This document shows positions 2,537-52,252 of a DNA stretch of 64,000 bases, piece by piece. The translations under genes were made by a program, and so were the position numbers. This DNA is from an uncultured Bdellovibrionales bacterium. Its GTDB lineage: Bacteria; Bdellovibrionota; UBA1018; CAIPTA01. Position 1 is the first letter of the stretch, and every line of letters begins with the position of its first letter. The notes under the pieces were generated by a model. That model saw nothing but the letters and a program-made list of their open reading frames with translations, made no database searches and was not told the origin of the DNA. The stretch is taken from positions 7,013 to 71,012 of the forward strand of contig CAZTCD010000001.1 in NCBI GenBank assembly GCA_964612065.1. The letters are read 5' to 3'.

Positions 2537-2574
2537 GAGTGCTTTGGGGCCAGCTGCAAGGAAGCAGGGGGCTA

Positions 2575-3612
2575 ATGGTATCGATCAAGCATCTGAAAAA
2601 GGGCGACGCTCTCATGAAGGAGGGCGATACCTCGAATTCCATGTACTGGGTGCAAAGCGGCACTCTTAGATTATTCAAGAAAAAAGGCGCCGGATTTATC
2701 GAGCTGGGTGTGGTGCACTCGGGCGAAGTTGTGGGCGAAATGAGCTTTCTTGATAATCAGCCGAGATCGGCCTCGGTGGAGGCTCTTCAGCCCTGCGATA
2801 TCGTGGAAATTCCCCGCGGAAAATTCGAAGAATTTATCAATGCGCAACCCTCCTGGATGAAGTCGCTTATCCAGACTCTCGTGAAACGCCTGCGAACCAC
2901 CAATAACCGCGTTCGCGAGCTCGAGAGCGCTTCGATGGTGTATGCGAAGGATGAGTCAGGAAAAACCAGCAAAGTGCATGAATTCCTGTCTTCGGCAGAA
3001 TCCATGAAGTTGTGCTCAGGCCTGCTTTTGGCGGCGGCTCGAAACGGCGAAAAAAGTGCGGATGGCTCGAATAAGGTGAAGGCCGGTTGGCTGCAATTTT
3101 ACGGTGGTCAGATTTTTGGGGTGCAGCTTTCCAAGATTCAGGTTTTCACCGATGTTTTGCATGAATGCGGCGTGATCAAGATTGAAAAGCAAAAGGATTT
3201 CGTAGAGCTTCACCTTCTGGACACTGATCGCTTGGAGAAGTTTATTTATTTCTCTCACGAGCAAAACTCTTTGCCAGACGACAAGCAGATACCGATTACT
3301 GTTAAGGGGGTTCAGATTCTGGATTGTGTGAATGAGTTTGGCAAGGTGGCGGAAACCGCGAATGGGGCGGAAACCGCAACTATTGACATGGAGGCTGTGT
3401 TTAAAGCCGCTGCGGAAAAGCGAAATCAGAAAGTGCCTTTTGAGTGGGGGGCTTTCGATGAGCTGGTAAAGAGCGGATTCTCTCAGGAAATACGAATCAC
3501 CGGAGAGCAAAAACCAGCCACTTTCCAAGTTGCGAGGTTTCAAAAACTTTTCCCTCTGCTATTTCTGAGGCAGAAATTCAAAGATCTGAATAAAGACAAG
3601 CGGGATGGCTAA
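2575..3612 (+). CDS. cyclic-nucleotide-binding domain protein with an uncharacterised C-terminal domain of about 220 aa
   Basis: The N-terminus matches the cNMP-binding fold (GDALMKEGD...GEVVGEMSFLD...RSASVEAL). No HTH or other known output domain is recognisable downstream. The start is taken at the ATG at 2575 after a GGAAGCAGGGGG purine-rich stretch. The track's GTG at 2539 overlaps its own Shine-Dalgarno. Confidence 0.6.
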   Translation: MVSIKHLKKGDALMKEGDTSNSMYWVQSGTLRLFKKKGAGFIELGVVHSGEVVGEMSFLDNQPRSASVEALQPCDIVEIPRGKFEEFINAQPSWMKSLIQTLVKRLRTTNNRVRELESASMVYAKDESGKTSKVHEFLSSAESMKLCSGLLLAAARNGEKSADGSNKVKAGWLQFYGGQIFGVQLSKIQVFTDVLHECGVIKIEKQKDFVELHLLDTDRLEKFIYFSHEQNSLPDDKQIPITVKGVQILDCVNEFGKVAETANGAETATIDMEAVFKAAAEKRNQKVPFEWGAFDELVKSGFSQEIRITGEQKPATFQVARFQKLFPLLFLRQKFKDLNKDKRDG

Positions 3613-4392: not shown

Positions 4393-5505
4393 CTATTTTT
4401 TGGTGTAAATCAGCTCGTAGGTGTCGGTGCCTTTCAGGATGGCAGATCCGTTGAGCTTCACCATATAACCGGAGCGCACATTCCCTGATGTAGGGTAGTA
4501 GGATGTGGGCTGGTTAGAGCGGTATCCAACGTATTCCCATCCGTTGCTGTTGCTGTTAGGCAAAGTGGAACCGTTTTTCTTCACAGTGATGGAAGAGGGA
4601 TCCGGCTCCTCGGGGAATACAAGGTAGTTGAATTCGATTGTCTGCACGATGGTTACCAGGCGCGAGCGGATGTCATAGAGCACATTGGACAAACCGCCGT
4701 TGCAAAGATCGTACGAAGCGCCGCCCAGTGCAGCTGCCATATTCATATAACGAATGCCTGCCCAAGTGCGTCCACCTCCGTAGCAGTCAGAATAGCTCTG
4801 AGCTGATACTACTGAGTAGAGGCGGTCCAACTGGGGTACATTGTTTTTGACCTGCAAGAAGTAGTTCTTGTAGGCATCGAATGAAGCCTGGGTGGTGGGG
4901 CTATTGTAGTCGATCGAGGTGGTTGCACCATCGGGGCGTGTAATATATGCAACGCCGGAGTGGTCATCGTTATTCGATATGATTACCATCGCAAGGGCGG
5001 CATCCTGGCGGATAAAGCCGGAGCTGATCAGGCTATTCAAATTGTAGTTCATGTTCTGGAACCCAAGATCAACGTTTCCAGTGGACGAGTTTCTGGAGTT
5101 GATCCAGCCAGAATCACCTGAAAGGCTGTTGAAATAGTTCACGCTCGAAGGGCCAACGCATCCTCCAGATGGAACGCCGTTGCAGTCAGTGGCCAGAACT
5201 ACTTTTGAGCTGATATGTTGCTGGCTTAGAAGGGGCAGAACTACAACTCGGTATTCCCAGTTCGTATCGAGTTGAGCCAGAAATCCCGAAAGCTGTGGCT
5301 TCAGCTGGGCCATTGCGTTGGTTAAAGAGTCAGAATTGTCCTGGAAGATCACTAGATCAAGCTTTGGCTTGATGTAGTTGTACTGGCCGGCGATTCCTAC
5401 CGAGCTCTCTTCGAGTTTTCTGAAGGTTTTCTTACCGCAGGCAGAAAGCGCAGTAATAGCCATCAGGGCTACAGTCACGGCTTTCCAGTTTCTCGGCTTC
5501 AACAT
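4393..5505 (-). CDS. hypothetical Asn/Ser/Tyr-rich lipoprotein
   Basis: A lipoprotein signal MLKPRNWKAVTVALMAITALSAC is present, with an AGGAG Shine-Dalgarno 8 nt upstream of this Met. It is a long, low-complexity N/S/G/Y-rich, surface-type protein. Confidence 0.55.
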   Translation of the reverse strand: MLKPRNWKAVTVALMAITALSACGKKTFRKLEESSVGIAGQYNYIKPKLDLVIFQDNSDSLTNAMAQLKPQLSGFLAQLDTNWEYRVVVLPLLSQQHISSKVVLATDCNGVPSGGCVGPSSVNYFNSLSGDSGWINSRNSSTGNVDLGFQNMNYNLNSLISSGFIRQDAALAMVIISNNDDHSGVAYITRPDGATTSIDYNSPTTQASFDAYKNYFLQVKNNVPQLDRLYSVVSAQSYSDCYGGGRTWAGIRYMNMAAALGGASYDLCNGGLSNVLYDIRSRLVTIVQTIEFNYLVFPEEPDPSSITVKKNGSTLPNSNSNGWEYVGYRSNQPTSYYPTSGNVRSGYMVKLNGSAILKGTDTYELIYTKK

Positions 5506-5716
5506 AAACAACTCCTGGTAACAGTCACACTTCACATGCAATACACAACGTTCGCTTCCACTAAGGGCACGGGGCACTGTGATCTAGCATGGAAAAGCAA
5601 GGCCGATGCCAATAGGAGACAGGCTCCGTCCGATTATTTAAGTATTTGAATTCTCAGCATTATTTTAAGTTGAGTGGATTTTGGGCCCGGGTGCCTAATG
5701 TTTAGGCTCCGGTACG

Positions 5717-6601
5717 GTGTCTGATCTTTATACAGCTAATTATACGACTAAACTAAAACGGCAGAAGGTTGCCCCTGTCACGCAACTGCTCAATACTAAA
5801 TATATGGAAAACACGCTGAATCTTCTAATGCAGGACACCGCCCTTAAATGGTTTACCGTTGTGGCCGGTCGCCCGGTAGGACCTCTGAGCGCGAAAGAGA
5901 TAGCACAGAGAATCAAGGCCAACGAGCTTACTTTTGCTTCTCACGTCTGGAAGGACGGCTTCAGCGGCTGGACCCGAATTTATGACGTAATCGACTTTAA
6001 GCCTCTCTTGCCCGCGGAGCCCAGTGCCGCCCATTTGGCTGAAGTTCAGAAGAGTTCAAGCGGCGGAGCTCCTCCTCCTCTTGCGCCAGCTCAGAAGGAG
6101 GAGCTGCGGGTATGGTACGCATATCTTGATGAGGCTAGCTATGGTCCTGTATCTGATCGTGAAGTAACTTCACTTATTGAGAGTGGCCGTATAACCGCGA
6201 ACACTTATATGTGGACCAAAGGCTTTGATGATTGGCAGCTAGGGAAAGACATTGATTACTGGAAAAATCGCTTGGGTACCCCGGTTGCCACCAAGCCGGC
6301 GGATAAGAGAGCGGCTCCGAGAAAGCCATTTGAAACCCGAATCCTGCTTACTGATGGAAAAGAAGTTGGATGGGCCATCTGTAGAGATATCAGTGTCGGC
6401 GGAATGCAGGTACTTATGGACCATTCGCCAGGCCCTTCAGGTACGCAGCTCAAACTGAATGTGAACCCACAAGGTAGTGTGCCCGGCTTTGCTTGTGAGG
6501 GGGTAGTGGTTCGCATTCTCGAAGATGGAAGAGGATTTTCGTTCCGATTCACGTCTCTTTCGCCTGAAGCCCGTGCAGCCATTGAAAAGTATATTGGCTA
6601 G
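5717..6601 (+). CDS. tandem DUF4339 (GYF-like) domains fused to a C-terminal PilZ-like domain
   Basis: There are two copies of the W..VAG/YGP...E...I..G.l....vW..GF..W motif (WFTVVAGRPVGPLSAKEI...VWKDGFSGWTRI and WYAYLDEASYGPVSDREV...MWTKGFDDWQL). The C-terminus carries a DISVGG (DxSxGG) PilZ signature and a beta-barrel-like tail. The start is uncertain, either the GTG at 5717 or the ATG at 5804. Confidence 0.55.
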   Translation: MSDLYTANYTTKLKRQKVAPVTQLLNTKYMENTLNLLMQDTALKWFTVVAGRPVGPLSAKEIAQRIKANELTFASHVWKDGFSGWTRIYDVIDFKPLLPAEPSAAHLAEVQKSSSGGAPPPLAPAQKEELRVWYAYLDEASYGPVSDREVTSLIESGRITANTYMWTKGFDDWQLGKDIDYWKNRLGTPVATKPADKRAAPRKPFETRILLTDGKEVGWAICRDISVGGMQVLMDHSPGPSGTQLKLNVNPQGSVPGFACEGVVVRILEDGRGFSFRFTSLSPEARAAIEKYIG

Positions 6602-6603
6602 CC

Positions 6604-7539
6604 ATGATTGTAAAATCACGCGACGGTACTCTGATATTTGGTGAGAGTTTTCGCTCTCCTAAGGCAAGGGGAGCGATTCTTGTAGTTCATGGATTGGGAG
6701 AGCATGGCGGGCGCTACGATGAACTAGTAGAGCACATGCTCAAGCTTCGCTTTGATGTGTTTGTGATGGATTTGCGCGGACACGGCAGATCCACTGGAGT
6801 TCGCGGCCACTTTTCTGATATTTCAGAACATCATGAAGACCTGGATGCTTGGATTGCTCATCTCGTTGCCACAGGGGAGTTGTCTAACAATATGCCCTGT
6901 GTTTTGTTGGGGCATAGCTTGGGTGGGCTCATCGCGCTAACCTATGCGGCACAATATGTACCATCGCCTCTGTCACCGAAAATCGATGGACTCGTTTTAA
7001 GCTGTCCACTGCTTGGCCTTCGCTTGAATCCCCTGAAGTTGCTGGAAGCACAGGTGGCGAGGAAAGTGCCGGCATTTTTAGGTTCCCTTCAGGTGCCTAA
7101 CGGCGTAAGCGCGAATGATCTTAGTCACGATAAAGAGGAAGTGGAGAGGTATCTGAGAGATCCTCTCGTTCACAAATGGATAACGCCTGCCGCATTTCTT
7201 GCAATCGAGCGAGCTTTGGCCGGATTGCATAAATTACCGGCTCAGCTTGGAATGCGAGCATTGTTTTTGCTGAGCGGCAAAGACAGGGTAGTGGACACCA
7301 AGGCGTCAAAATTTTTCGCTGAGAAACTCGGGATTGCCCATTCAGGCCAAGTAGAGGTAAAGCTGTTCCATAGCTTCTTCCACGAGCCATTTCATGAGCT
7401 AAGGAGGGAGCGTGCCTTCCTCGAGCTCAAGAAATGGATTCTTCAATGCATACTGAAAAGTCACTTCCAAAGCCCAGCAAAGAAAGGCTCCTCAAGATCC
7501 TCCGGGAAAAGAGCTACCGTGAAGGGGACTTCACTCTAG
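6604..7539 (+). CDS. alpha/beta hydrolase of the lysophospholipase/monoacylglycerol-lipase family
   Basis: It carries an HGLGEHGGRY oxyanion region and a GHSLGG nucleophile elbow. The last roughly 30 aa overlap pyrE and look like a read-through extension. Confidence 0.7.
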   Translation: MIVKSRDGTLIFGESFRSPKARGAILVVHGLGEHGGRYDELVEHMLKLRFDVFVMDLRGHGRSTGVRGHFSDISEHHEDLDAWIAHLVATGELSNNMPCVLLGHSLGGLIALTYAAQYVPSPLSPKIDGLVLSCPLLGLRLNPLKLLEAQVARKVPAFLGSLQVPNGVSANDLSHDKEEVERYLRDPLVHKWITPAAFLAIERALAGLHKLPAQLGMRALFLLSGKDRVVDTKASKFFAEKLGIAHSGQVEVKLFHSFFHEPFHELRRERAFLELKKWILQCILKSHFQSPAKKGSSRSSGKRATVKGTSL

Positions 7540-8030
7540 CTAGCGGAAAAAAAAGCACCTTCTATCTCGATGTGAAGGAAACGGCTTTCAACCCAGAGGG
7601 GGCATACCTAATCGGCGCGCTTACTGTAGAAACACTAGTTAACGCCGGGATTAAGCCTTATGCCGTGGGTGGATTAACCCTGGGGGCTGATCCACTTGCT
7701 ACTTCAGTAAGTTTGGCGTTTTTCTCCATTGGGATGAATGTCCCTGCCTTTATTGTGCGCAAAGAGGCAAAAGATCATGGCACCTTGTCATGGGTGGAAG
7801 GCGCAAAAACCTTTCCCAGGGGTGCTGAATTGGTGGTGCTTGAGGATGTGACCACTACCGGAGGATCCTCCCTGAGAGCTGTGGAAAAACTCCGGGATGC
7901 GGGATTCAAGGTTACCGCGATTTTAACTGTGGTTGATCGGTTGGAAGGCGCACGTAAGATTATAGAATCGAAGGATCTGAAGTTTATCAGCCTTACCACG
8001 CTGATCGACATTCGCAGTACCAAGGCTTAA
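7446..8030 (+). CDS. pyrE: orotate phosphoribosyltransferase
   Basis: ERLLKILREKSYREGDFTLASGKKSTFYLDVK aligns to the PyrE N-terminus. A PRPP-binding acidic motif VVLEDVTTTGGS is present. The start is Met 7446 or 7434; both overlap the preceding hydrolase. Confidence 0.85.
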   Translation: MHTEKSLPKPSKERLLKILREKSYREGDFTLASGKKSTFYLDVKETAFNPEGAYLIGALTVETLVNAGIKPYAVGGLTLGADPLATSVSLAFFSIGMNVPAFIVRKEAKDHGTLSWVEGAKTFPRGAELVVLEDVTTTGGSSLRAVEKLRDAGFKVTAILTVVDRLEGARKIIESKDLKFISLTTLIDIRSTKA

Positions 8031-15065: not shown

Positions 15066-16712
15066 GTGGAGTGGAATAGCCCTAGGGGGGATGCGGTGAG
15101 AATATCTTTGTTGCTTGGAACGATTACCCTTTTCCTGGCTGGAACCCTTTTTTATGCGGAGCGAAAAAGAGGTGAAAACTACGAAAACTCTCTGACCTCG
15201 ACCGTTGAAAGAGTTCTTCGGGCGGAGAGCAGATCTTTAGCGGGACGCCTGGAGGAGGCTGCGCTCAAAGCGGATCGCGACGCATTGATTACCGCAGCCC
15301 GACATAGGAAAAAACCTCCTCTCCGAACATTTTTAAGCGACACGTCTCTTGCGGAGCCGAACGCTCCCAAGTGGGTAATAGTGGCAGGGAGGCGGATCCG
15401 CGCGGCGGGGGTGCTGGAAGATGCGCTCTTGGAAGAGGCGTTGGAAAAACATCTCAAGCACAAAGAGCGCTTTTCTCTGCAAGGATCCCGGGGGAAATAC
15501 TTTCTGTTTGTGAAAGGAAACCTTGCTACGGGCCAGCCTTATGCCATGGCTTACGCGCCGGAGTCTTTTTTTTCAGCGTTTCAGGCCAGTGAAGGTCTTC
15601 GAGTCTGGATTGCGGGGAGGGATGGTACGGTAATTTTTCACCCCCTTCATCGATTCATCGGATCTAACGTTTCGAATCTCAAACCGGTAGCTGCTGGACT
15701 GCAGCGCCTTGGTGCCGGACGCTCCGAGCAGTTCACAGAGCGCTATCTAGGAATTGAGGGGAAGGACGCCTTGGGTTCCTGGACTACACTTCCCAACCAG
15801 GGATTGTTGGTGGCTTCAGAGTGGCCACGAGATCCGGGATCCGGAGCTGTGTGGTCGTCGCTGTTTTGGGCGGCCTTGTTGTGCTCCGGATTGGGATTCG
15901 GGTTCATGGGCGTGGGGCTAGCGAGGGTACGAAAGCCCGGATCTGATAGTACACGTGAGCGGGTGTTTGATGAAAACAGGCTTGATGACGATGCTATGGA
16001 GTACCTGGAGAAAGCTAAAATAGCCGCTGACGAGGCGTTGGAGTTTGCCAGGGCACAGGAAGGTTTGGCTGACCAAGCAAATCGGGAACGCTCTCGATTC
16101 GCCGCACAGGTGCGACAGCTTGAGTCGAAAATCAGCCTATTAGAAACCTTTCAGGACAAAGTACTTCCGCTGATAATGGGAAAACAGGTCTGGAACGAGC
16201 TTGCTTCGCTGGCAGTGGAAAACGCTCCGGGACTTACTTTTACGGTCTATCGATATTCTCCCTCCAGCTACTCGTTGGTACCGGAAGCTTGCTTTGGCGG
16301 CGCAGGACTTACTGAGAATGGACTGTCCTATCTAAATGACACTCGGATCTTTATTGGAAGCTTGAGCTTTCTGCCTACCGTGTTAAAAACGGAAGCATTT
16401 AATAAGTGGAATCGCACACGCGAACGCTTAATGCCTCACCTTCATGCCGAGTTCAGAGTGTTCCCATTCCAAACGCAAATCGCAAAAGGGGCTATAATAG
16501 CGATTTTCGATGAGAGGATGAACGAGGCAGGCGAGCTTGAAGATACCTTTCTTGTCCTCGATCAACTTGTGAGAAGAACAGGCAGTTTTTGCGATAGCAT
16601 TACCCCCCTGTTACAATCGACTTATGCTTTCAAATCGGCTTCCCAAGCAGCTTCCGGGACGACCCTGGCAGGTGCGCCAGACGGCGCTGGAAATCGATCT
16701 CGGCCATCTTAA
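15066..16712 (+). CDS. membrane sensor-like protein: Cache-like periplasmic domain, TM segment, coiled coil and an unknown C-terminal domain
   Basis: An N-terminal TM segment is followed by a periplasmic region (GRDGTVIFHP...LGSWTTLPNQGLLVASEWP) resembling a Cache fold. A second TM follows (LFWAALLCSGLGFGFMGVGLA), then a coiled coil and a novel domain. No kinase, GGDEF or MCP motifs are present. Its 3' end overlaps alr. Confidence 0.45.
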   Translation: MEWNSPRGDAVRISLLLGTITLFLAGTLFYAERKRGENYENSLTSTVERVLRAESRSLAGRLEEAALKADRDALITAARHRKKPPLRTFLSDTSLAEPNAPKWVIVAGRRIRAAGVLEDALLEEALEKHLKHKERFSLQGSRGKYFLFVKGNLATGQPYAMAYAPESFFSAFQASEGLRVWIAGRDGTVIFHPLHRFIGSNVSNLKPVAAGLQRLGAGRSEQFTERYLGIEGKDALGSWTTLPNQGLLVASEWPRDPGSGAVWSSLFWAALLCSGLGFGFMGVGLARVRKPGSDSTRERVFDENRLDDDAMEYLEKAKIAADEALEFARAQEGLADQANRERSRFAAQVRQLESKISLLETFQDKVLPLIMGKQVWNELASLAVENAPGLTFTVYRYSPSSYSLVPEACFGGAGLTENGLSYLNDTRIFIGSLSFLPTVLKTEAFNKWNRTRERLMPHLHAEFRVFPFQTQIAKGAIIAIFDERMNEAGELEDTFLVLDQLVRRTGSFCDSITPLLQSTYAFKSASQAASGTTLAGAPDGAGNRSRPS

Positions 16713-17781
16713 ATCGAATTTTAAAAAACTCTCCGCTCGCGCGGATAACGCTCGCCTGTTGGCGATGTTGAAAAGCGATGCCTATGGGCATTCCATGAAG
16801 GAAGTGCTTCTCGCGCTGGAGAGTATCCCCGGAACAAAGTTGAACGGTTTCGGAGTGGCCAATGTGGAAGAGGGAATCGAGGCCAGGAGAGCAGGTGCTA
16901 TCCGGCCAATTTACGTTCTTTCGGGGATTCAGTTTTATGACGGTGACCTTCATCGTTGCCTGAAGACTGTGAATCTGATTCCCGTAATCGGATCCTTAAG
17001 GGTGCTGAAACAACTTGCTTCAACTTTGAAGTCGCTTAAAGCACAGCAGGCTGTTCATTTAAAACTAAATACAGGCATGAATCGCCTCGGGATTGATCCG
17101 GGTGAACTTGATGCGTGCCTTCGTATTTTATCTTCAAACAAAAATATTCGGGTTGACGGAATCTTAAGCCACTTTTCTGCTGGCGAAAAAAAAACGAGCT
17201 CAATTACAAAGTCTCAAGTGGCGAGTTTCCGAGAAGTCATGTCTCTGTTCAAAGAGCAGGGAATTGAGCCGAAGTTCATGCATATGGCGAACTCTTCCGG
17301 GCTGTCTTCAGGGGTTTTCCCTGAGGGGAATTTATCGAGGGTGGGATTGCATCTCTATGGATTGGACGATCAGGAGCTGAAGCCTGTGGCTAGTTGGACC
17401 GCTCAAGTATATCACATCCGAGATATTGGAAAGGGAAGCGCCGTTGGTTATGGGCCCCACTTTCGTGCCCGTCGAAAAATGAAGATGGCCGTGCTGGGGG
17501 TAGGATATGGTGACGGTTATCGAAGAGCATTGTCCAATCGGGCGGAAGTACTTATTCGAGGAAGGCGATGCCCGGTAATTGGTGCAATTAGCATGGACTT
17601 AACAACAATAGATGTAAGTGCGCTTCCTTCTGTTACCGTAAATGATCGAGTTACTTTGATAGGAAAAGATGGAGGAGAGCAAATTACCGCCGGAGAGTTA
17701 GCTTCCCATGCTGGGACTATTTCATACGAAATTTTGACCGGCATTTCGGCCAGGGTGCCAAGGATATTTCTAAATGGATGA
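16624..17781 (+). CDS. alr: alanine racemase
   Basis: The PLP-Lys motif is AMLKSDAYGHS and the C-terminal signature is YEILTGIS. Size is 385 aa. The start may instead be the GTG at 16672, which reduces the overlap with the upstream gene. Confidence 0.85.
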   Translation: MLSNRLPKQLPGRPWQVRQTALEIDLGHLKSNFKKLSARADNARLLAMLKSDAYGHSMKEVLLALESIPGTKLNGFGVANVEEGIEARRAGAIRPIYVLSGIQFYDGDLHRCLKTVNLIPVIGSLRVLKQLASTLKSLKAQQAVHLKLNTGMNRLGIDPGELDACLRILSSNKNIRVDGILSHFSAGEKKTSSITKSQVASFREVMSLFKEQGIEPKFMHMANSSGLSSGVFPEGNLSRVGLHLYGLDDQELKPVASWTAQVYHIRDIGKGSAVGYGPHFRARRKMKMAVLGVGYGDGYRRALSNRAEVLIRGRRCPVIGAISMDLTTIDVSALPSVTVNDRVTLIGKDGGEQITAGELASHAGTISYEILTGISARVPRIFLNG

Positions 17782-19975
17782 GTCACAAGATTTAGGCTGG
17801 CTCATCCGGGATAACAGCAACCGGGTCAGGGGGCCCTTCAAGCACGCTGAAATCGTCCAGCTCATAAAAAAGGGACAGCTCAAGGGAAAAACTGAAATTT
17901 CCAGGGCCAATTCATATTGGTTTGCCATAGAGGAAAAAACGGAGTTGGGGCGTTTCTTTCCTGAATTCAATGGTGGGAAGCCTCCTCCTGAGGCGCCTAC
18001 TCAGATGACTGCTACTCTGACCGAGGCTGACATTCAAGACCGCGTGGATATTACAACTTTCACGTCCTTGAAGCCCACCCAGGAAAGCGAGGGCAAGCTA
18101 GGGTCCCCAGAAGGGCTGACGTCGGGAACCGGGCAGATCGAATGGCTGAATGATGAGTTCGCACAGGAATTTGGTGATGATTTAGGTGTAACCATTTCAG
18201 TGCAGACCGATGCTTCCGCTCTTAGGCAGACTCCGAACGAGATCCCTGGAGCGCCCTCTCCTGATGCGGATCCGGTAGTTCAGCCGGAAATAAATCCTGA
18301 CGATGAGAAAACTCATCCTGCGATCAGTGAGGAGAAAGCCAAGCAGCAGGAGATGCTTCGCAGAGCGACTGTGAAAGCAGATACCTTGCCCAGTGAACAT
18401 AAGAGCTTTCAGGGAGACAGGCCAAAACCCATAGATACGTTGATGCGAGCGCGCAGCTCTGGTGGGCAGGTGCCTTCGCAGTCGTCTCACGTGATCAATG
18501 TGCCGGTAGAACCGGAACCGGCTCCAAAAATGTTTTTGGAAGAGCCTGATGCCAAATCCGAGGAAAATAAGCGCAGAAAAAAGTTGTTGATTGGCATTAC
18601 GGCTGTTTTTCTGGCGGTGATTGCAGTGGGTTTAGTGTTCTTTTTGGTATCGAACGCCGATAAGCGAAAAGGATCCATCGAACCGGTACGACCGGCACGA
18701 AAAGGAGAGGAAGCTTTTACTGCTGTAAGGCAGGCGATCATTCTATTTGATCTCGAAGGGGCCAGAGGTGCACTTACTGAACTGGAGCAACAACCAAATT
18801 CCAGATCGGATGCCTCTCTATCTCTCGCCCAGGCGATTGTAAAAAAGGAATTTCTGTTTGACGTAGAGGGAGCTTTGAGTGCCTTGCAAATCGCGAAAGG
18901 GCAAGTCAAAGCGAAGCGAATCGAGGCTGAGGTAGACAACCTCCTGGCCGTTTATAGTTTTGATCGGGATCCCGCTTCCTCTTCCGAAATGCTGAAGCGC
19001 AATCTTGAGAGCTGGAAAGAGGATCCGGTTTTCAAATATAACCTCGCGCTCAGTATGCTGCGCACCGGCCGTCCTCAAGAGGCTATTCCGGTTCTGGATG
19101 CTTTGTTAAGCGACCTTTCAGGCGACAACGCTCTAATCGAGGATGCTGCTTTAGTGCAAGGATGGGCGTTGGAGGCCCACTGTGGGGGGGGATCGCGTGA
19201 TTTGATTTGCCGAAGAGGAACCGACGCAGAGTCTTTTTACGAACGAGCGCTACAAGCCAATCCTTATTCGGCGAAGGCTCGGTTGGGATTGGCTCTGCTT
19301 AGAATGAGAAGGGGGGGAATAAGAGCATCGGAGGGTGACTTTCGCGCGTTTCTCGACTCCGCCCTTGAGCTTGACCCACCTTCCAGAATCAATAATTTTC
19401 GAAAACTTGCGAATTCCGACTTTTTTATATTCGCGCACAATCAGATCGTGGAACTGAATACGCCTGGCCAAGCCGTGACTAAACCTTCACCGATTGTAAT
19501 GGCAGCCGATGCAATCATCTCGAGCATGCAGCTAAAGACTTCCGAGGCGGGCAAGATTCTTGATACTGCATTGTCTGCGGCGCCAGGGGATCCGAACGTA
19601 CTTAAGGCGCTTGCTTATCTACGTTGGAAAGAGGGGCGTCTAAATGAGTTGGTGGAGGCATTGAAGGATCTTCGGGATCGGAACAGTTTTGCAGTGAACT
19701 TGATGCTTGGCAAGGCGTACTCCAAGCTTAGAAAGCGCCAGCTCGCCGAAAAACACTACAGGTCATTGGTAGATGGTTTCCCTAACCGTTCGGAGGGGCA
19801 CTCCCTTCTCGGAGATCTGCTTCTTGACGACCCTGCGAAAGCAGAGGAAGCAAAAGCGGAGTTCCAGTTGGCACTGAAAAAAGATCCCCTGGATCTCACG
19901 GCTTGGCGAGGTCTTCAGAGAGCTGGCGCTCCAATCGTACTATCTCCAGAAATTCAGAAAAATCTTCCGTATTGA
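17774..19975 (+). CDS. DUF4339 (GYF-like) domain, TM segment and TPR-repeat protein
   Basis: The N-terminus has a GYF-like motif (WLIRDNSNRVRGPFKHAEIVQLIKKGQLKGKTEISRANSYWFAIEE). The TM segment is LLIGITAVFLAVIAVGLVFFLV. The C-terminal half consists of TPR-like helical repeats. The start overlaps the alr stop (ATGGATGA). Confidence 0.6.
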   Translation: MDESQDLGWLIRDNSNRVRGPFKHAEIVQLIKKGQLKGKTEISRANSYWFAIEEKTELGRFFPEFNGGKPPPEAPTQMTATLTEADIQDRVDITTFTSLKPTQESEGKLGSPEGLTSGTGQIEWLNDEFAQEFGDDLGVTISVQTDASALRQTPNEIPGAPSPDADPVVQPEINPDDEKTHPAISEEKAKQQEMLRRATVKADTLPSEHKSFQGDRPKPIDTLMRARSSGGQVPSQSSHVINVPVEPEPAPKMFLEEPDAKSEENKRRKKLLIGITAVFLAVIAVGLVFFLVSNADKRKGSIEPVRPARKGEEAFTAVRQAIILFDLEGARGALTELEQQPNSRSDASLSLAQAIVKKEFLFDVEGALSALQIAKGQVKAKRIEAEVDNLLAVYSFDRDPASSSEMLKRNLESWKEDPVFKYNLALSMLRTGRPQEAIPVLDALLSDLSGDNALIEDAALVQGWALEAHCGGGSRDLICRRGTDAESFYERALQANPYSAKARLGLALLRMRRGGIRASEGDFRAFLDSALELDPPSRINNFRKLANSDFFIFAHNQIVELNTPGQAVTKPSPIVMAADAIISSMQLKTSEAGKILDTALSAAPGDPNVLKALAYLRWKEGRLNELVEALKDLRDRNSFAVNLMLGKAYSKLRKRQLAEKHYRSLVDGFPNRSEGHSLLGDLLLDDPAKAEEAKAEFQLALKKDPLDLTAWRGLQRAGAPIVLSPEIQKNLPY

Positions 19976-19982
19976 GGTTTGC

Positions 19983-21176
19983 TTGCTACACCCATTTCAC
20001 GCAGCATTTTATTCGGCTAGAAATCGGCAACAGCTTGCTCAACTTGTAGTTTCAGATCTAGATACAACCGAGCATCTCTGGGGGGGGCGAGATTCGAGCA
20101 AGTCATTTCGAAATGTTCTTGTTGGTGCAACTGAACACCGGGGCGAGATATGGCAGGCATGGATCAGTAGTGGAGAGGTAGATTTAGCGGATGATGATGG
20201 ATTTTATGTGCTCCATCAAAGTCAGCGATTGGAGGGGAGATTAATAGACAGGTGGGCCCTGTACGGAGCTATAGGTGTTGAAGACCAGGGATTGTTTATC
20301 CATGAGGACGTGTTGCCGGAGGGCGTGGAGCGGGCCAGGCAAGGAACTGAAGCCTGCGAGAGTGACTTGGCGCCAATTTTTGTCGGGTGCGAGGAAAGCA
20401 AGGGGCTTTTGCTCCGAGAGCTTCTCTCGTCCTATTGTCGGGAAAGGAAACCTTTTCTAAGATTCGAGACATTGGAACAAGGGGCACACACGGTTTGGGT
20501 GATGGATGGTGCAGAGGCAGTTCGTCAGGCAAAGGAACTCTTCGCTGGGACGCCACTTTTCTTGTTGGATGGCCATCATCGTCTCGCCGCAGCCAGGGAA
20601 AACTTTCGTCTGGGCATGGGGGATGGGCGTATCCTGGCCTGTGTGTGTTCCATGGCTCCTTCGGATACGTTGATCCTGCCAATTCATCGTGCTGTAAACT
20701 ATGAGAGATGGATGCTTCCAGACGCGCTTTTTGCTGATTTGGTGAGGTCGGGCTGTAAGCTGACTGAGTTAGACTCTTTGCGCGTGTCCGGAATAGCGGA
20801 CTATTTGAATGGGCATCACTCGAGCGGCCCGTATTGTATAGTGCAGCACTCTCATTCGACGAAACCCACCTTGGTGGAGTTGCCTGCGGTTTTATCTCTG
20901 CCAGAACAGCTGGCAGACCTTTCGGTGGCGGCTTTAGACACCGGAGTTTTGGGTGAGCACCTTCAAGCTACCGTAATGCCCGTGCCAAGTGTGGATATGG
21001 CTCTGCAGCAGCTGGCACTGGATCAGGCTCAGGCTGCATTTTTTCTTCCAGCCAGTAGCCCTGCTCAAGTTCGATCAGTAGCACTTGGAAAGCTTCGGAT
21101 GCCGAGGAAAAGTACTAGGTTCGTTCCGAAACCTGCTTTGGGGCTTCTTTGCCGTCCGTGGACCTCGACTGGATAA
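19983..21176 (+). CDS. DUF1015 family protein
   Basis: The family N-terminus (.PF.a..Y) is present as MLHPFHAAFYS. The signature DGHHR motif appears in FLLDGHHRLAAAREN. A TTG start lies 4 nt after a GAGG. Confidence 0.6.
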   Translation: MLHPFHAAFYSARNRQQLAQLVVSDLDTTEHLWGGRDSSKSFRNVLVGATEHRGEIWQAWISSGEVDLADDDGFYVLHQSQRLEGRLIDRWALYGAIGVEDQGLFIHEDVLPEGVERARQGTEACESDLAPIFVGCEESKGLLLRELLSSYCRERKPFLRFETLEQGAHTVWVMDGAEAVRQAKELFAGTPLFLLDGHHRLAAARENFRLGMGDGRILACVCSMAPSDTLILPIHRAVNYERWMLPDALFADLVRSGCKLTELDSLRVSGIADYLNGHHSSGPYCIVQHSHSTKPTLVELPAVLSLPEQLADLSVAALDTGVLGEHLQATVMPVPSVDMALQQLALDQAQAAFFLPASSPAQVRSVALGKLRMPRKSTRFVPKPALGLLCRPWTSTG

Positions 21177-24070: not shown

Positions 24071-26323
24071 CTAATGCCGCACTTTACCTAGGTCATCCTG
24101 GATACGGCCAGCGCCTCCACCGGCATCAAATCGAGAGAAAGGATTGCTCCAGTTGGTGTCGGGGCTCACGGGGTCATTCGTGCCAGTGCCACCAGCGGCC
24201 AAAGACCGAAATGAGATGAAACGCACAGAGTAACCGGAGCGTCCGATATCCGGACCCAGCTCAGAATTCATAGGGATATTACCAGGGGGTTGCAGATCCT
24301 GGTCTCTGGCCGTTTTCTGGTTGTTCCAGGAGGTAAGCTGGCGTCTCTGGGCGTTCGGGGTTGCGGCAACCGTATAACGCTGCCCAAAGGCCTTCACGTA
24401 TCCTAATAGGTCCCTTTCGTCGTTGAGGAGGGGGTCGGGAATATAGTGGTTTACCACCTGATTTTGGCTCTCCAGGTAGCCAAATAGAATGGCCCATTTG
24501 GCATCGCTCATTACGCCGTTAAGGAAGGATCCGAACTTTCCTTCCAGAGTGCCGGCGTCGGCTGGGCCCCCGTTCAGGTACTCTGCTACCCGCAGGCGAA
24601 GAAAGCCCAAGCCAGCATTGGAGTTTACGGGGAAGAGAGGGGCGGCGAGGGTGAAAAATTTGCCCTCATAAACGGGGTTATCCTCAAAGAGGCCGATCTG
24701 CTCAGGTTCATTATAGTTGGCAGGAACCGTGTAATATCCGACTTCCCAGGGTGCATAAGCCCCTGAGAGCCGAGGTCCTAAATCGAGGCGATCTAGAGAG
24801 CGCATGGCTCCATTGATGTAGCCCAGGTGGGCATTGGTGGTAAATCCGCCAGCCTGGGAGTCCGAGTCGGTGTTGGACACAAGTGGATTGGGAAACCGGG
24901 CCGAAGTTAGGGTGTTTAGAATTTCCCCCTGGGTAGTTTTGCCCAGTGCGATCATTTGATGAAATTCGGTTTCGTCATCGTGGGAGAGATCTTTGCCAAT
25001 ACGGGAACCAAAGGGTTTGGCAGCTGAGTAGGCCGAGAGGGTTACGATTCCGTTGCCGCCAAAAGGAGAAAACAGAAGCCGAGCCTTTGCCTGAAGACGC
25101 ACAGCATAGTAGGTCACCAGCCCTGGATACTTCGACACGCCAAAGGGGAAATGAGGAATAACCCTGTTTTCTCGGTACTGAAAACAGTCTCCGCGGTCCA
25201 ATTGGCCTCGAGTTTCGAACTTGGAGTTGGCCACTGTTACTCTCGCGAACTGATCTTTGAACTTCACGAGGACCGGCGGGTTCTGGATAAATCGGTTGTC
25301 AAAACCGGCCCCTGTACTTGGAGCGCCGGGCTGGCTGGGAATGAGTTCGGTCATTTCAATATTTGCGAAGATCCCGTTGTCTCCCCCGATTCCAGGAAGA
25401 TTGTTTTTTGCACTGAGGTAGGCCTGAATCGGGCGTTCATAGTAGTCGAGAGTTTTTCCGCCCCCTTGTGCTGCGTTTCTCAGGGCTCCCATCGTTTCTT
25501 CTGTAACGGTGATCGATCCTACGCCTTCATTTGCGAGATTTAGATTTAAGGCTTCTTCATAGTTGTCGATTCGGGCTCTAAGAATGGCTTGTCGGGGCAA
25601 AACACCTACACGCTCAAGGCCATTTGTGAAAGGAAATGGATCTTCCGTATCACGTCCGATAGTGAGCATGGCGTCAGCCCCTTGAATCGGGCTCAAATTG
25701 AACAGCCAGGAAATCAGGAACTGCTGGTTGATTTCGGTTCTGCCTAGGCAGTCCGCGATTTTCTTTTCGATGATTTGGTTGGTTGCCGAACGAACCGCGG
25801 CCACAATAGGATCTGCCACACCCCAGGATCCGCCGCCCTGAAACTCAGGAATCCCGGGAACTCCATTTTTTTGACAGTAGTTGTTGGTAGCTTCGAAGAT
25901 TTTGCACACGGATGGCAAAAATGGCCCGCCAGTTTCGTTGGTATTTTCCCTTGGATCAACAAACGCGAAGTCATGCCGGTCGTCCCCAGGGTGCTGAACG
26001 CACATAGGAATTCGGCGCCCTGTGAAATCGAAGGGGAAGCAGGGCATGGCTTCGTAGTTCCCTCTAATGGTATAATAAAACATAAATTCTTTGAGTGCCC
26101 GGCGCATCTCCCAATTCAGGTATCCCACGGCCGTGAGCTGGCGGGCCTGAACGGCAGCTCCTGAATAGGAGGCGGCGTCGGCCGCATTCTGCAAATTGAT
26201 CTTTGCATGAACGAGCATGCCTACGTTCGTTGTGAACGCGAACATGATGATCATCGTAAATATAAACAGGGCCATGAACAGTGATGTCTGGCCGCGCTCA
26301 TCCCTGAGCCTTCTTATGCGCAT
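24071..26323 (-). CDS. large TadE/TadG-like (Flp-pilus pseudopilin N-domain) protein
   Basis: The N-terminal TM helix is SLFMALFIFTMIIMFAFTT. It is followed by NVGMLVHAKINLQNAADAASYSGA, matching the TadE/G-like LQnAADAAALAGA motif. The remaining roughly 680 aa are Gly/Asn/Pro-rich with no recognisable vWA MIDAS motif. Confidence 0.6.
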   Translation of the reverse strand: MRIRRLRDERGQTSLFMALFIFTMIIMFAFTTNVGMLVHAKINLQNAADAASYSGAAVQARQLTAVGYLNWEMRRALKEFMFYYTIRGNYEAMPCFPFDFTGRRIPMCVQHPGDDRHDFAFVDPRENTNETGGPFLPSVCKIFEATNNYCQKNGVPGIPEFQGGGSWGVADPIVAAVRSATNQIIEKKIADCLGRTEINQQFLISWLFNLSPIQGADAMLTIGRDTEDPFPFTNGLERVGVLPRQAILRARIDNYEEALNLNLANEGVGSITVTEETMGALRNAAQGGGKTLDYYERPIQAYLSAKNNLPGIGGDNGIFANIEMTELIPSQPGAPSTGAGFDNRFIQNPPVLVKFKDQFARVTVANSKFETRGQLDRGDCFQYRENRVIPHFPFGVSKYPGLVTYYAVRLQAKARLLFSPFGGNGIVTLSAYSAAKPFGSRIGKDLSHDDETEFHQMIALGKTTQGEILNTLTSARFPNPLVSNTDSDSQAGGFTTNAHLGYINGAMRSLDRLDLGPRLSGAYAPWEVGYYTVPANYNEPEQIGLFEDNPVYEGKFFTLAAPLFPVNSNAGLGFLRLRVAEYLNGGPADAGTLEGKFGSFLNGVMSDAKWAILFGYLESQNQVVNHYIPDPLLNDERDLLGYVKAFGQRYTVAATPNAQRRQLTSWNNQKTARDQDLQPPGNIPMNSELGPDIGRSGYSVRFISFRSLAAGGTGTNDPVSPDTNWSNPFSRFDAGGGAGRIQDDLGKVRH

Positions 26324-33080: not shown

Positions 33081-33908
33081 ATGCTGAAACATCTCCTGAT
33101 AATGGCCATTGTGCTGATTCATTTCTCGGGATGCTATGCGCGCCCTTCGAATGCCCTTAATGCCGGCCGTGTAATTAATTATACCAGCTGCGTGCTTCCG
33201 AAAGATCAGGGTGTGGGAAGCCTCCATGGGAAGTGGGCCAATCTGCCCGTGCCGGTGGTTTTCGACAAAGACTTCTATGTTGCTGACGAGGGTGAAGTGA
33301 TTCCTTCGATGAGAGGGGCATTGCAGAGCTGGAACAATTGGGCAACGCTTCGAGGCCTCGAGGCTTTCAGCTTGAAAAACGATGGATCGGGAATCACCGC
33401 CGGCCGAGAAATTCCGGAACTTACAGACTGTGCGCAGGCTTCCTATTCTTCCTCCATAACCGATATGGTGGGGATCTGGAAAATCAATGGTGCCGGGTTT
33501 CATGCAAATCAGCGTGCGAGTTGCGGAACTCTTTCTAACGGCCAGCCAGGGAGAATTCTTCCCTTTGCGGTACAAGGCCAAACAGATTGGATTATTCAAA
33601 GCGGTAAAATCATCGGTTCAAGCATTCTCCTGAATTTTGAAGACTATAATGCTCCTGGTAAGCAGAGGATCGATGTGGAAAGTCTCCTGCTACATGAAAT
33701 GGGGCATGTATTGGGGCTTCTGCATAGCTGCAACGGCTCAAGCGGCGATTCCCGCGACTCCACCACTTCTCCCGCCTGCTTTTCAAATGGTCTGCTCTCT
33801 GCGCCTCCTCAATATACCAATGCAGTGATGTTTCCCTTTCTGGAAGTGGCCCAAGAGAGAAGGGATCTTAAGCAAAACGATTATCACAGAATCAATTGCC
33901 TTTATTGA
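33081..33908 (+). CDS. metzincin-type zinc metalloprotease lipoprotein
   Basis: The lipobox is IHFSGC. The full metzincin zinc site is HEMGHVLGLLH (HExxHxxGxxH). Confidence 0.7.
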   Translation: MLKHLLIMAIVLIHFSGCYARPSNALNAGRVINYTSCVLPKDQGVGSLHGKWANLPVPVVFDKDFYVADEGEVIPSMRGALQSWNNWATLRGLEAFSLKNDGSGITAGREIPELTDCAQASYSSSITDMVGIWKINGAGFHANQRASCGTLSNGQPGRILPFAVQGQTDWIIQSGKIIGSSILLNFEDYNAPGKQRIDVESLLLHEMGHVLGLLHSCNGSSGDSRDSTTSPACFSNGLLSAPPQYTNAVMFPFLEVAQERRDLKQNDYHRINCLY

Positions 33909-46640: not shown

Positions 46641-47282
46641 TTAGAGCTTGGTTAACTGCCTTCGATGAAAGAAGGTAAGCGTAGAGAGAATCTGCGCAAA
46701 TCCGAGCAGAAACACGTTTATCACCGGAATGAACAACAACAGATTCAACAAGAGCCCCAGAAAAAAATTTGAAACCGGATTCTTAAAGAACAAGCGAACT
46801 CGGAATGACAAGCGCTGGTCAAATCTGCCGTAAATGGCGCATAGAAAAGAATAGGCAGCAAGCCAGGCGATGAGAATGAACTGTACAGGTGCAAGAAGGG
46901 GAATCAAGGAGAGCGCCAGCAGGAATAAAGCCGCAGCAGCCACAAGAAGCGAGTGAAAAAACTCCCTGGCCAACCGTTTCATGCCGAAGTCCGGTGCAGG
47001 AATTTTTACTTCTCCGTAAACAGCGCGCTGAACCTCATCAATAATAGGATCTTCCACGGGTAGAAGGGAGAGTTTTCCAAAGACTAACCATGTGAGTAGG
47101 AAGACCAGCATCATGGCTGGTAATGAGATCCAAAGAGCGCTGGCTTGTAGAAGTGACTGCCACGTCAGATAAACTACAACCGATGCTGACGCAAAGGTAA
47201 TAACGCCAGGAAAGACGCCCAAAGCAAATAGCTTTGGGCGCGTAAAGAACAGCTTAATTGCATGAAAAGGAAGTGAGATCAC
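46641..47282 (-). CDS. hypothetical polytopic membrane protein (CysZ/EI24-like topology)
   Basis: The 213-aa ORF contains 4-5 TM helices. Its start overlaps the stop of the upstream metalloprotease gene by 4 nt. Confidence 0.35.
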   Translation of the reverse strand: MISLPFHAIKLFFTRPKLFALGVFPGVITFASASVVVYLTWQSLLQASALWISLPAMMLVFLLTWLVFGKLSLLPVEDPIIDEVQRAVYGEVKIPAPDFGMKRLAREFFHSLLVAAAALFLLALSLIPLLAPVQFILIAWLAAYSFLCAIYGRFDQRLSFRVRLFFKNPVSNFFLGLLLNLLLFIPVINVFLLGFAQILSTLTFFHRRQLTKL

Positions 47283-50081: not shown

Positions 50082-51425
50082 ATGGCTACTTCCGTTCCCA
50101 AGCTTCTTCTTATTTCTGACAATCAGGATATTAAGGAGCTACTTACGTTCCAGATCACGTCGCGGTTTGCTCTTAAAGTACAGGAGTGTTCTTCGGCGCG
50201 GGACGCAGCTGAGCTTTTAAAAAAAGACATTACATTGGAGCTTTTGGTAGGGCCCTATAACGGGCCCAACTCGGTGCTCGTCAAAGCATTGAGAGAGCGG
50301 AAGAGCAAAGTTCCTGTTCTATTCTTTTTTGATCCACTTGTAGTTAAGCCCGAGAAAGAAGATCTGGGCGGCTTGAATGTAATCGGCACGGTGGAACATT
50401 CGAATCTTGTAGACGGAGTACTGAGTGCCATAGAGAAGTTTCTTCCTATGGGTGAAATTGAAGGTGGTGACTCGGAGTTTTGTCCTATTCGCACCAACTT
50501 GCTGATCAAAGTGTCTCCGTTAAAAAGTGAAATTTATATTCGCTTGAACGAAACAAAGTTTGTGAAGCTATTCCGGGCTGGAGACGAGTTCGATGCCGCC
50601 GATCTCGAAAGGTACTATCAGGAAAAAAAGGTGGAGTATATGTACCTCCGCCGCAATGAGACTGCTGAATTCATCATGAAGTTCCGAAGGGAGCTTGAGG
50701 AACTTCTGCAGAGAAAGGATCTTCCGAAAGAGGAGGCATTGGCTGCTTCGGAAATGTCGCATGAAGCAATTCATGAGCTGGTGCACAGTATCGGCTTTAA
50801 CGAAGAGGTGCAGGAGCTTGCCAAGAAAAACGTGGAGATCACTCTCAAAGCGATCGGATCCAATCCGCGACTCAGTGACCTGATCAATAAAGTAAGCCGG
50901 GAAGGGAGCTATATATCACAGCATTCCACGCTGCTCGCGCACGTAGCCTGTTGCGTTGCCAAAGAGATGGACTGGGGATCAGACGCCACGTTCTCCAAGC
51001 TGGCATTGGCGGCTTTCATGCACGATATTTCCGTAAAAGACCCTGAAATGGCGAAAGTGAACTCCTTGCGCGAACTTGAAGAAAAAAAAGGCGCGTTTCC
51101 GGCAGAAGAGATGAAGCAGTATCACCTGCATCCCGCAAAGGCAGCCGACGTGGTGAGAAGTTTCAAAGAGGTTCCGGCCGATGTAGATATCATCGTGCAG
51201 CAACATCATGAGCGTCCGAATGGCAGCGGTTTTCCACGAGGCTTGCTGTTCAACTATATCTCGCCACTTTCTAGTTTATTCATCGTCGCTCATGAGCTGA
51301 CTCAGGCGATTCTTTTTAAGAGGACATCCTTTAATCTTGGGGAATGGGTTTCTGAGAAAAAACCGGCATTCAATCAAGGCAATTTCAAGAAAGTGATGGC
51401 GGCGCTTGATAAGGTGAAGCTGTAA
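50082..51425 (+). CDS. HD-GYP-family protein with a degenerate HD-GFP motif and an N-terminal pseudo-receiver domain
   Basis: The HD motif is FMHDISV. HHERPNGSGFPRG is read against the HD-GYP signature HHExxDGxGYP, showing D to N and Y to F changes. The N-terminal 120 aa are REC-like (LLLISDNQD...) but no phosphoacceptor Asp is evident. Confidence 0.65.
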   Translation: MATSVPKLLLISDNQDIKELLTFQITSRFALKVQECSSARDAAELLKKDITLELLVGPYNGPNSVLVKALRERKSKVPVLFFFDPLVVKPEKEDLGGLNVIGTVEHSNLVDGVLSAIEKFLPMGEIEGGDSEFCPIRTNLLIKVSPLKSEIYIRLNETKFVKLFRAGDEFDAADLERYYQEKKVEYMYLRRNETAEFIMKFRRELEELLQRKDLPKEEALAASEMSHEAIHELVHSIGFNEEVQELAKKNVEITLKAIGSNPRLSDLINKVSREGSYISQHSTLLAHVACCVAKEMDWGSDATFSKLALAAFMHDISVKDPEMAKVNSLRELEEKKGAFPAEEMKQYHLHPAKAADVVRSFKEVPADVDIIVQQHHERPNGSGFPRGLLFNYISPLSSLFIVAHELTQAILFKRTSFNLGEWVSEKKPAFNQGNFKKVMAALDKVKL

Positions 51426-52175: not shown

Positions 52176-52252
52176 TGGCGGACCCGATACGATTCGAACG
52201 TACGACCTTTGCCTTCGGAGGGCAACGCTCTATCCAGCTGAGCTACGGGTCC
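52176..52252 (-). tRNA. tRNA-Arg (anticodon CCG)
   Basis: The reverse complement folds as a cloverleaf: acceptor GGACCCG/CGGGTCC, anticodon stem TTGCC/GGCAA, loop CTCCGAA, T-loop TTCGAAT, and an encoded CCA. Confidence 0.85.

Follow-up and report, generated by a model that had tools for sequence, protein, structure and literature searches.

Tandem GYF_2 domains joined to a PilZ domain: a conserved family of predicted c-di-GMP receptors in Bdellovibrionota

The gene analysed here raises a question of molecular wiring: What would a sensor of cyclic diguanylate (c-di-GMP), a second messenger, do when it is fused to two copies of a module related to one that recognises a proline-rich sequence in a bacterial motility scaffold? 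The gene lies in a stretch of 64,000 nucleotides (nt) from an uncultured Bdellovibrionales bacterium (GenBank assembly GCA_964612065.1, contig CAZTCD010000001.1, positions 7,013 to 71,012 of the forward strand), which is the window of this analysis and to which coordinates refer unless another locus is named. An open reading frame (ORF) occupies positions 5717..6601 of the + strand, and its longest form opens with a GTG at 5717, the gene start given by the initial annotation of this DNA. That start is 87 bases too far upstream, the real one being the conserved ATG at 5804, because the protein then has 265 amino acids (aa) plus stop (5804..6601, +), which is approximately the length of nearly all of its 241 homologues, with 90% of the query covered, and because the residues MEN found at this internal ATG are at least 95% conserved in the family. 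On the evidence of its sequence, the 5804 protein is predicted to be a soluble PilZ-class receptor for c-di-GMP located in the cytoplasm, an assignment that we consider probable.

The domain composition of the protein is clear from profile searches. Pfam detects GYF_2 (PF14237, formerly DUF4339) in two stretches, with an E value of 7.1e-24 and 83.8 bits against a gathering cut-off of 25.8, and PilZ (PF07238) once, with an E value of 2.8e-13 and 50.5 bits against 22.5, the match extending over positions 1-100 of the 102 in the PilZ profile; neither score could plausibly arise by chance. The duplicated DUF4339 and its fusion to PilZ, both proposed by the initial annotation, are thus borne out, and the GYF_2 similarity that it had left to a profile search is found well above the cut-off. 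All the segments of the protein now described are encoded on the + strand. The protein begins with a helix, MENTLNLLMQD (5804..5836), that is conserved at 95% or more and is predicted by AlphaFold2 (AF2) to span residues 2-10; no known domain covers this N-terminal element. The first GYF_2 domain (GYF1) follows at residues 12-62 (5837..5989), delimited by Pfam, by conservation, by AF2 and by Foldseek matches to GltJ, GIGYF and an Arabidopsis GYF domain. The second (GYF2), at residues 101-150 (6104..6253), contains the best of the Pfam stretches and is further defined by conservation, by a phmmer match to the structure 7z3c and by hhalign, which aligns the two modules with each other at 99.6% probability. 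They are separated by a linker at residues 63-100 (5990..6103), recognised by its proline-rich composition with the segments PLLPAEP and APPPLAP. The PilZ domain takes up residues 167-265 (6302..6598) and consists, according to Pfam, AF2 and Foldseek, of a loop bearing the RxxxR motif, a six-stranded barrel and a C-terminal helix. The only cysteines of the protein are at positions 193 and 231.

A canonical PilZ domain combines an RxxxR motif, a [D/N]hSxxG motif in which h is hydrophobic, and a six-stranded barrel followed by a C-terminal helix (Galperin and Chou survey, 10.1101/814665). The 5804 protein has all three features, the barrel and its helix by AF2 prediction. The RxxxR motif, which was not clear by eye in the initial annotation and on which the functional value of the PilZ assignment had been made to depend, is present as RAAPR at residues 169-173 (6308..6322, +; residues 198-202 of the long ORF), within the tether joining GYF2 to the barrel. 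It precedes the second motif, DISVGG at residues 195-200 (6386..6403, +), recognised by sequence and conservation and having Ile as its hydrophobic residue, by 21 residues, a spacing within the expected range of about 20-30. Among the homologues listed, the two motifs occur together in 117 of 120, and 109 keep them exactly 21 residues apart; of the three that deviate, two are truncated fragments and one is apparently frameshifted at its C terminus. An alignment of 83 sequences, reaching down to 24% identity, has invariant columns at G26, P27, G114, P115, W144, R169, R173, S197, G200 and F249, while W16 and W56 of GYF1 are nearly invariant and D195 and G199 reach at least 90% conservation; conservation is highest in the PilZ barrel. 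Because motifs and core residues remain invariant over such deep divergence, the c-di-GMP site and both GYF cores must be under strong selection.

This evidence bears upon the possibility that the PilZ domain is degenerate and works as an interaction scaffold without sensing c-di-GMP, like the Xanthomonas PilZ protein XAC1133. Some PilZ domains have indeed ceased to bind c-di-GMP, and non-binders typically lack the two motifs (10.1101/814665); in the present family, however, both motifs are intact and invariant, with a fixed spacing, and the strong selection that follows from this makes a non-binding domain highly improbable.

The AF2 model of the 5804 protein, built on 83 homologues, has a mean predicted local distance difference test score (pLDDT) of 88.4 and arranges the protein as a short N-terminal helix, GYF1, linker, GYF2, tether, barrel and C-terminal helix; its predicted template modelling score (pTM) is only 0.58, and therefore the placement of the domains relative to each other is uncertain. 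GYF1 is modelled with strands at residues 14-20 and 23-29, a helix at 30-38 and a strand at 47-50, a pattern that GYF2 repeats at residues 102-138. The PilZ part has a pLDDT of about 90, with strands at 176-182, 187-194, 200-204, 215-221, 229-238 and 245-251 and a helix at 254-264. When this model is compared with the PDB by Foldseek, the top matches are c-di-GMP-bound PilZ structures (PA2799-like 4xrn, Alg44 4rt0/4rt1, YcgR 5y6g, PA0012 8u0i, MapZ 5xly and BcsA), and the GYF domain of GltJ (7z3c), human GIGYF1/2 and an Arabidopsis GYF domain are returned as well. The sole solved relative in terms of sequence is this same GYF domain of GltJ/AgmX, matched by phmmer to GYF2 with an E value of 4.3e-4 and 14/44 identical residues, among which are those of W-Y, GP and W-x-x-GF-x-W.

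With the known PilZ receptors (YcgR/PlzD type, MapZ, PA4608, Alg44) the 5804 protein shares the fold and the position of the RxxxR tether between an N-terminal domain and the barrel. It differs from receptors of YcgR type in its N-terminal part, which is not PilZN, PilZNR or xPilZ but two GYF_2 domains with a proline-rich linker; neither PilZN (PF07317) nor PilZNR (PF12945) gives a Pfam match at E <= 1, and the protein is not YcgR-like. Nor is it a member of TIGR02266, the Myxococcus paralogous PilZ-type family, for which it scores 27.5 bits against a cut-off of 68.7. The protein is a variation on a well-known receptor type, and it is the combination with tandem GYF_2 domains that is uncharacterised. 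Some members carry the JGI annotation 'PilZ domain/GYF domain 2', and the architecture is thus already visible to automatic annotation; no description of the GYF_2-GYF_2-PilZ fusion was found in the literature or in the PilZ survey (10.1101/814665), a search outside of which lay the supplementary GYF survey of the GltJ paper.

How widespread is this combination? Searched exhaustively, a set of 1.84 billion cluster representatives, defined at 50% identity, yielded 96 clusters with E <= 1e-30, and 248 when the limit was set at E <= 1e-10. The full GYF-GYF-PilZ architecture is present in 114 of the best 144 representatives, the rest being mostly fragments or poly-GYF proteins, and both c-di-GMP motifs are retained in 126/131 of the representatives bearing PilZ. 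GYF-GYF-PilZ proteins therefore form, by sequence, a stable family, which comprises some 100 clusters when grouped at 50% identity and keeps its architecture across the lineage. The few named homologues and the related loci come from metagenome-assembled genomes labelled Bdellovibrionota, Bdellovibrionales, Oligoflexia or Bacteriovoracia; the related loci were obtained by a contig scan built on a single query, which reached close relatives only, and a homology search starting from the distant member P0234 returned only P0234 itself. Tandem GYF_2 arrays are common among the nearest relatives, where 4-7 copies occur and are often preceded by a zinc ribbon (ZnR) at the N terminus, so that the duplication alone is unremarkable.

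In functional terms, these features create a puzzle: Why should a sensor domain be so constantly accompanied by two GYF modules? In two-domain PilZ proteins of the YcgR/PlzD type, the RxxxR arginines reside in the inter-domain tether, which is re-ordered upon ligand binding. According to the PilZ survey, c-di-GMP is bound at the linker between the domains (10.1101/814665). As to the other half of the protein, the statement of the initial annotation that DUF4339 has no established function is outdated, since the family is now GYF_2 and the GYF domain of GltJ uses its beta-sheet to bind, with micromolar affinity, a proline-rich stretch of AglZ (PMC11135422). The face of this beta-sheet carries the residues that are most conserved among prokaryotic GYF domains, and the domain does not bind the CD2 peptide (PMC11135422). 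The explanation that we favour, somewhat more in confidence than in doubt and on the combined grounds of sequence, models and analogy, is that the 5804 protein would function as a c-di-GMP-gated adaptor for proline-rich partners. We infer that its PilZ domain would bind c-di-GMP and that, because the RxxxR arginines sit in the tether of about 25 residues between GYF2 and the barrel, the ligand should re-order this tether, as in proteins of the YcgR/PlzD type. Such a re-ordering would alter the presentation of the GYF modules, which would bind proline-rich segments of one or two partners via their conserved Trp/Gly-Pro beta-sheet face, in the way the GYF domain of GltJ binds AglZ. Since in this proposal the ligand changes how the GYF modules are presented, the interaction with proline motifs would come to depend on the level of c-di-GMP.

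This proposal needs to be qualified, for several points weigh against it. The ligand is known for one bacterial GYF_2 domain only, and the authors of that work expect the ligands of other GYF domains to vary (PMC11135422). The position preceding RxxxR is Lys or variable, rather than the Arg of the extended RRxxxR motif, and the low pTM of the model makes the geometry between the domains, as well as the tether switch proposed here, uncertain. Moreover, the operon partners of the gene, a hydrolase and pyrE, point to no obvious signalling output, and no conserved proline-rich motif is present in the hydrolase among the homologues compared.

The linker between the GYF modules could itself provide their ligand. 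Across the family it is variable in sequence and in length (24-57 residues) while its richness in proline is kept, with a median of 18% Pro versus about 4% in the folded domains and a PxxPxxP-like motif in 59 of 83 sequences. It is conceivable from this conservation of composition that the protein is an autoinhibited switch, in which its own linker would fill one or both GYF faces, and c-di-GMP would release it, or else lock it, and so control the access of external partners; GltJ has a comparable intramolecular switch, operating between its ZnR and its linker (PMC11135422). Yet proline-rich linkers are often passive spacers, and the AF2 model, which renders the linker with a single helix at a pLDDT of about 72-75, contains no readable docking of it on either module, so that autoinhibition appears to us unlikely.

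The genes that accompany the fusion suggest a different target. The next gene, starting 2 nt past the stop of the PilZ protein, codes for an alpha/beta-hydrolase (6604..7539, +) of the Hydrolase_4 family (Pfam, 189.5 bits), lysophospholipase-like and with GHSLGG at the nucleophile, though its matches to the NCBIfam lysophospholipase and phospholipase models are weak. It is followed by pyrE for orotate phosphoribosyltransferase (7434..8030, +; TIGR00336, 137.1 bits against 106.8), the true start of which is probably downstream of 7434. The trio of GYF-PilZ, hydrolase and pyrE genes is kept in 13/13 distinct loci, in seven of which stop and start overlap by 4 nt; it persists among relatives with 36-39% identity and also where a different gene lies upstream (L012 and the P0108 contig), and in L011 the hydrolase-pyrE pair lies on the opposite strand yet still abuts the GYF-PilZ gene. 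This linkage exceeds the synteny of the genomic backbone and suggests either co-regulation or a functional tie. If the tie were functional, c-di-GMP-loaded PilZ might itself contact and regulate a target through its surface, the hydrolase being the best candidate, while the GYF modules would merely localise the protein to a proline-rich scaffold. The complexes of MapZ with CheR1 (5xly, 5y4r) provide the model for regulation of this kind and are both matched by the 5804 model in Foldseek; no other part of the protein is conserved as well as the PilZ barrel, and the gene of the hydrolase adjoins that of the GYF-PilZ protein in every locus, often with the 4-nt overlap, despite the inversion in L011 and differing outer flanks. 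However, the adjacency also takes in pyrE, which has no evident link with such regulation, and the operon may thus reflect a gene order that has become frozen; in addition, the hydrolase is devoid of a conserved proline-rich motif, and the invariance of the two GYF modules would be left unexplained. Regulation through the PilZ surface is, in our view, of rather modest probability.

Other features of this neighbourhood can be described briefly. The hydrolase was also considered as the proline-motif ligand of the GYF modules and rejected, as the segment VPSPLSPK of the window protein is not conserved among hydrolases. In L011 the hydrolase (5153..5935 of that locus, -; 260 aa) lacks the GHSLGG segment in the alignment and may be a degenerate enzyme or an artefact of assembly or frame. 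No riboswitch or other Rfam RNA was found at E <= 1 in the 226-bp leader of the GYF-PilZ gene, and a promoter scan of positions 5400-8300 gave one promoter-like site versus 2.7 expected, the terminator-like matches falling within coding sequence. On the other side, and divergently oriented, lies a gene that most related loci have conserved next to the GYF-PilZ gene; it codes for a predicted lipoprotein of 394 aa (4393..5577, -; lipobox LSAC), without Pfam domain and with a weak match to the NCBIfam 'MIDAS family adhesin' of Bdellovibrio (35 bits versus 700). Further upstream, a gene for a cNMP_binding protein (2539..3612, +) comes directly after those for a thiolase and two CoA-transferases, and this thiolase/CoA-transferase/cNMP_binding block adjoins the GYF-PilZ locus also in the distant relatives L010 and, inverted, L011.

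Does the window contain a natural partner for the putative adaptor? The initial annotation had placed a third copy of DUF4339 in a protein of 733 aa (17774..19975, +) that is made up of a GYF-like module, a linker, a transmembrane (TM) helix and tetratricopeptide repeats (TPR), the latter recognised by Pfam; its ORF starts with an overlap of 8 nt with alr, and it has 54 homologues, one of which is a 100% identical NCBI protein. The claim stands by profile-profile comparison and by fold, and falls short at the level of Pfam, where GYF_2 scores 18.0 bits (E 0.0024) under the cut-off of 25.8 and where none of the 54 homologues has a precomputed GYF_2 match. Aligned by profiles with the GYF modules of the 5804 family, the N-terminal module at residues 7-66 (17792..17971, +) reaches 94.7% and 96.1% probability over 54-55 columns, versus 0.3% for a PilZ control, and a further hhalign run gave 92.6%, the runs together spanning 54-60 columns. 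In its AF2 model (pLDDT 80) the elements follow one another as in those modules, beta-beta-alpha-beta-(beta)-alpha, and its top 16 PDB matches in Foldseek are all GYF domains (Smy2, GIGYF1/2, GltJ, Arabidopsis, CD2BP2 and a TIC-complex GYF); across both window proteins, the matches to the GYF fold, a four-stranded sheet with helices, comprise 7z3c, 7rup, 7ruq, 1wh2, 3fma and 1gyf. The first 66 residues are the best-conserved part of the 733-aa family, with W9, R12, D13, N16, G20, P21, E26, Y48, W49 and F50 invariant. We accept this N terminus, on the basis of sequence profiles and modelling, as a diverged GYF_2-like domain.

The remainder of the 733-aa protein consists of an acidic, proline-rich cytoplasmic linker at residues 67-268 (17972..18577, +), having 11.4% Pro and PxPxP-type motifs at 70, 158 and 244; a single TM helix at residues 269-292 (18578..18649, +), located by a hydropathy scan and preceded by KRRKK; and a periplasmic TPR region at about residues 400-715 (18971..19918, +), with TPR_19, TPR_16 and TPR_14 and partial matches to NCBIfam families of TPR type. 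The protein shows no signal peptide, no Cys in residues 1-270 and no Pfam match to a zinc ribbon. When scanned in six frames with the hidden Markov models of the families, the 64-kb window yielded exactly three GYF modules and a single PilZ of this type, and 164 kb of related loci yielded none beyond the orthologues. The three modules, which the initial annotation had seen as multiple paralogues within 15 kb, are not recent paralogues, for the third is only 15-25% identical to the other two even in profile alignment, and their proximity carries little weight because the region is broadly syntenic and of housekeeping character. As for the notion of a module wired into second-messenger signalling, it suits the 5804 gene, given its PilZ domain with an invariant RxxxR, whereas for the TM/TPR protein no link to a second messenger can be detected beyond its proximity to that gene. 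The latter is a separate envelope-spanning protein. Its gene lies between alr and a DUF1015 gene in a block at 16624..21176 (+), with the 8-nt overlap on one side and a gap of 7 nt on the other, and the same succession recurs in L002, L004 and L007; this points to an operon that would tie the TPR protein to the metabolism of the cell wall.

Comparison with characterised GYF proteins helps in placing both products. The commonest architecture of bacterial GYF proteins is an N-terminal GYF domain combined with a membrane module (PMC11135422). GltJ (AgmX), which belongs to the Agl-Glt gliding system of Myxococcus xanthus, has the order ZnR-GYF-linker-TM-TPR. In sequence, its GYF domain 7z3c is related most closely to the GYF_2 modules of the 5804 protein, and the 733-aa protein shares with GltJ the succession of cytoplasmic GYF, proline-rich linker, TM helix and periplasmic TPR; in contrast, the zinc ribbon is absent from both window proteins, and the 5804 protein, unlike GltJ, is a soluble protein with a PilZ domain. 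For the NCBIfam GltJ model, NF033761, the 5804 protein scores 42.9 bits, over the GYF region only, and the 733-aa protein 14.5, against an equivalog cut-off of 450. No glt or agl genes are present among the window ORFs scanned, the neighbours being alr and DUF1015 in one case and the hydrolase and pyrE in the other. Orthology of either protein with GltJ was consequently rejected on score, missing ZnR and gene context. Eukaryotic GYF domains (CD2BP2, Smy2, GIGYF1/2; PF02213) share their fold with both window proteins and differ in that their G-Y-F triad is replaced by GFS, GFD or NSYWF in the modules studied here; PF02213 has no match at E <= 1 for either protein, and its signature GP[YF]xxxx[MV]xxWxxx[GN]YF is only partly present. 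Bacterial GYF_2 domains also employ a different binding face, the beta-sheet (PMC11135422).

A further parallel for the 733-aa protein is found in Bdellovibrio bacteriovorus. The hypothetical protein Bd0075 belongs to an attack-phase, predation-essential set and is composed of a conserved cytoplasmic Domain-A, a TM helix and extracytoplasmic TPRs; Domain-A has no InterPro annotation and is GYF-like by structure, and the TPR Domain-C binds the FHA/TPR protein Bd0474 (2025 study, PMC12034629). The architecture is the same as that of the window protein, in 965 aa versus 733, and the N termini align (W..., GP[FY], G, W). Using a Bd0075 sequence machine-read from a PDF supplement, blastp gave 28% identity over 36 N-terminal residues (E 3e-4 in a two-sequence search) plus scattered weak TPR matches. 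We regard Bd0075 as an architectural relative and, by sequence, a possible distant homologue of the 733-aa protein, without calling it an orthologue.

The network suggested by the initial annotation can now be weighed, in which the two proteins would work together: The tandem GYF modules of the 5804 protein could, for example, bind the proline-rich linker of the 733-aa protein and thereby feed c-di-GMP signals into an envelope-spanning complex. That linker offers about 200 cytoplasmic residues with three PxPxP-type motifs, the two genes are 6-12 kb apart in the window, L002, L004 and L007, and the architecturally similar Bd0075 is in the predation-essential set just mentioned. But the genes belong to different operons, separated by housekeeping genes (dsbD-like, nadB-like and alr), their proximity is not specific in a region that is syntenic as a whole, and the poly-proline stretch beside the GYF module of the 733-aa protein is conserved solely in close relatives. 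Such a cooperation of the two proteins is very unlikely. A broader version of the favoured adaptor would have c-di-GMP, or possibly in this lineage 3',3'-cyclic GMP-AMP (3',3'-cGAMP), switching the tandem GYF modules on or off as a second-messenger-gated reader of proline-rich motifs, coupled to a proline-rich cytoplasmic segment of an envelope-spanning GYF/TPR machine of GltJ or Bd0075 kind that serves gliding or predation in Bdellovibrio-like organisms; we consider this full scheme quite unlikely, and, if true, it would be of a type not described in bacteria.

The interest of the adaptor proposal lies in the signalling gap that it addresses. PilZ receptors are the commonest c-di-GMP effectors. 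For most of them, including the 15-18 reported in B. bacteriovorus, no downstream partner is known. The present family joins an intact PilZ sensor to a module of which a single bacterial relative has been characterised, a domain that binds to a proline-rich stretch of a motility scaffold, and it thereby offers a testable output, the c-di-GMP-dependent binding of proline-rich partners. Because its members are short, soluble, well conserved and confidently modelled, they make a tractable system in vitro. Should the partner belong to the apparatus of gliding or predation, the family would supply a missing link from nucleotide signalling to those machines in predatory bacteria; should the partner lie outside of it, the family would be one more PilZ architecture.

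The rest of the window is ordinary chromosome, with genes for thiolase, CoA-transferase, a DsbD-like protein, an L-aspartate-oxidase-like flavoprotein, alr, IF-2, NusA, ThrRS, tRNA-modifying enzymes and secreted proteases; its sole Rfam matches are tRNA genes at 52179..52252, 55677..55756 and 63347..63430, all on the - strand. A protein of 447 aa (50082..51425, +) contains an HD_5 domain of HD-GYP type, in which HHERPNGSGFP corresponds to HHExxDGxGYP with D replaced by N and Y by F; this protein could be a c-di-GMP phosphodiesterase of unconventional type or else a receptor that has degenerated. Another of 750 aa (24071..26323, -) is recognisable only in its N-terminal segment, which is TadE/G-like (Flp pilus assembly), and is unusually large for that family. 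Three predicted proteases within 20 kb, a matrixin-like M10 enzyme (33081..33908, +), a Met-zincin of 842 aa with DUF4953 (47279..49807, -) and a subtilase (52398..53609, -), are consistent with a predatory or hydrolytic lifestyle. Finally, positions 42407..45052 (+) encode an 881-aa fusion of AMP-binding, PP-binding carrier and acyltransferase domains, an Aas-like protein for acyl activation and acyl transfer.

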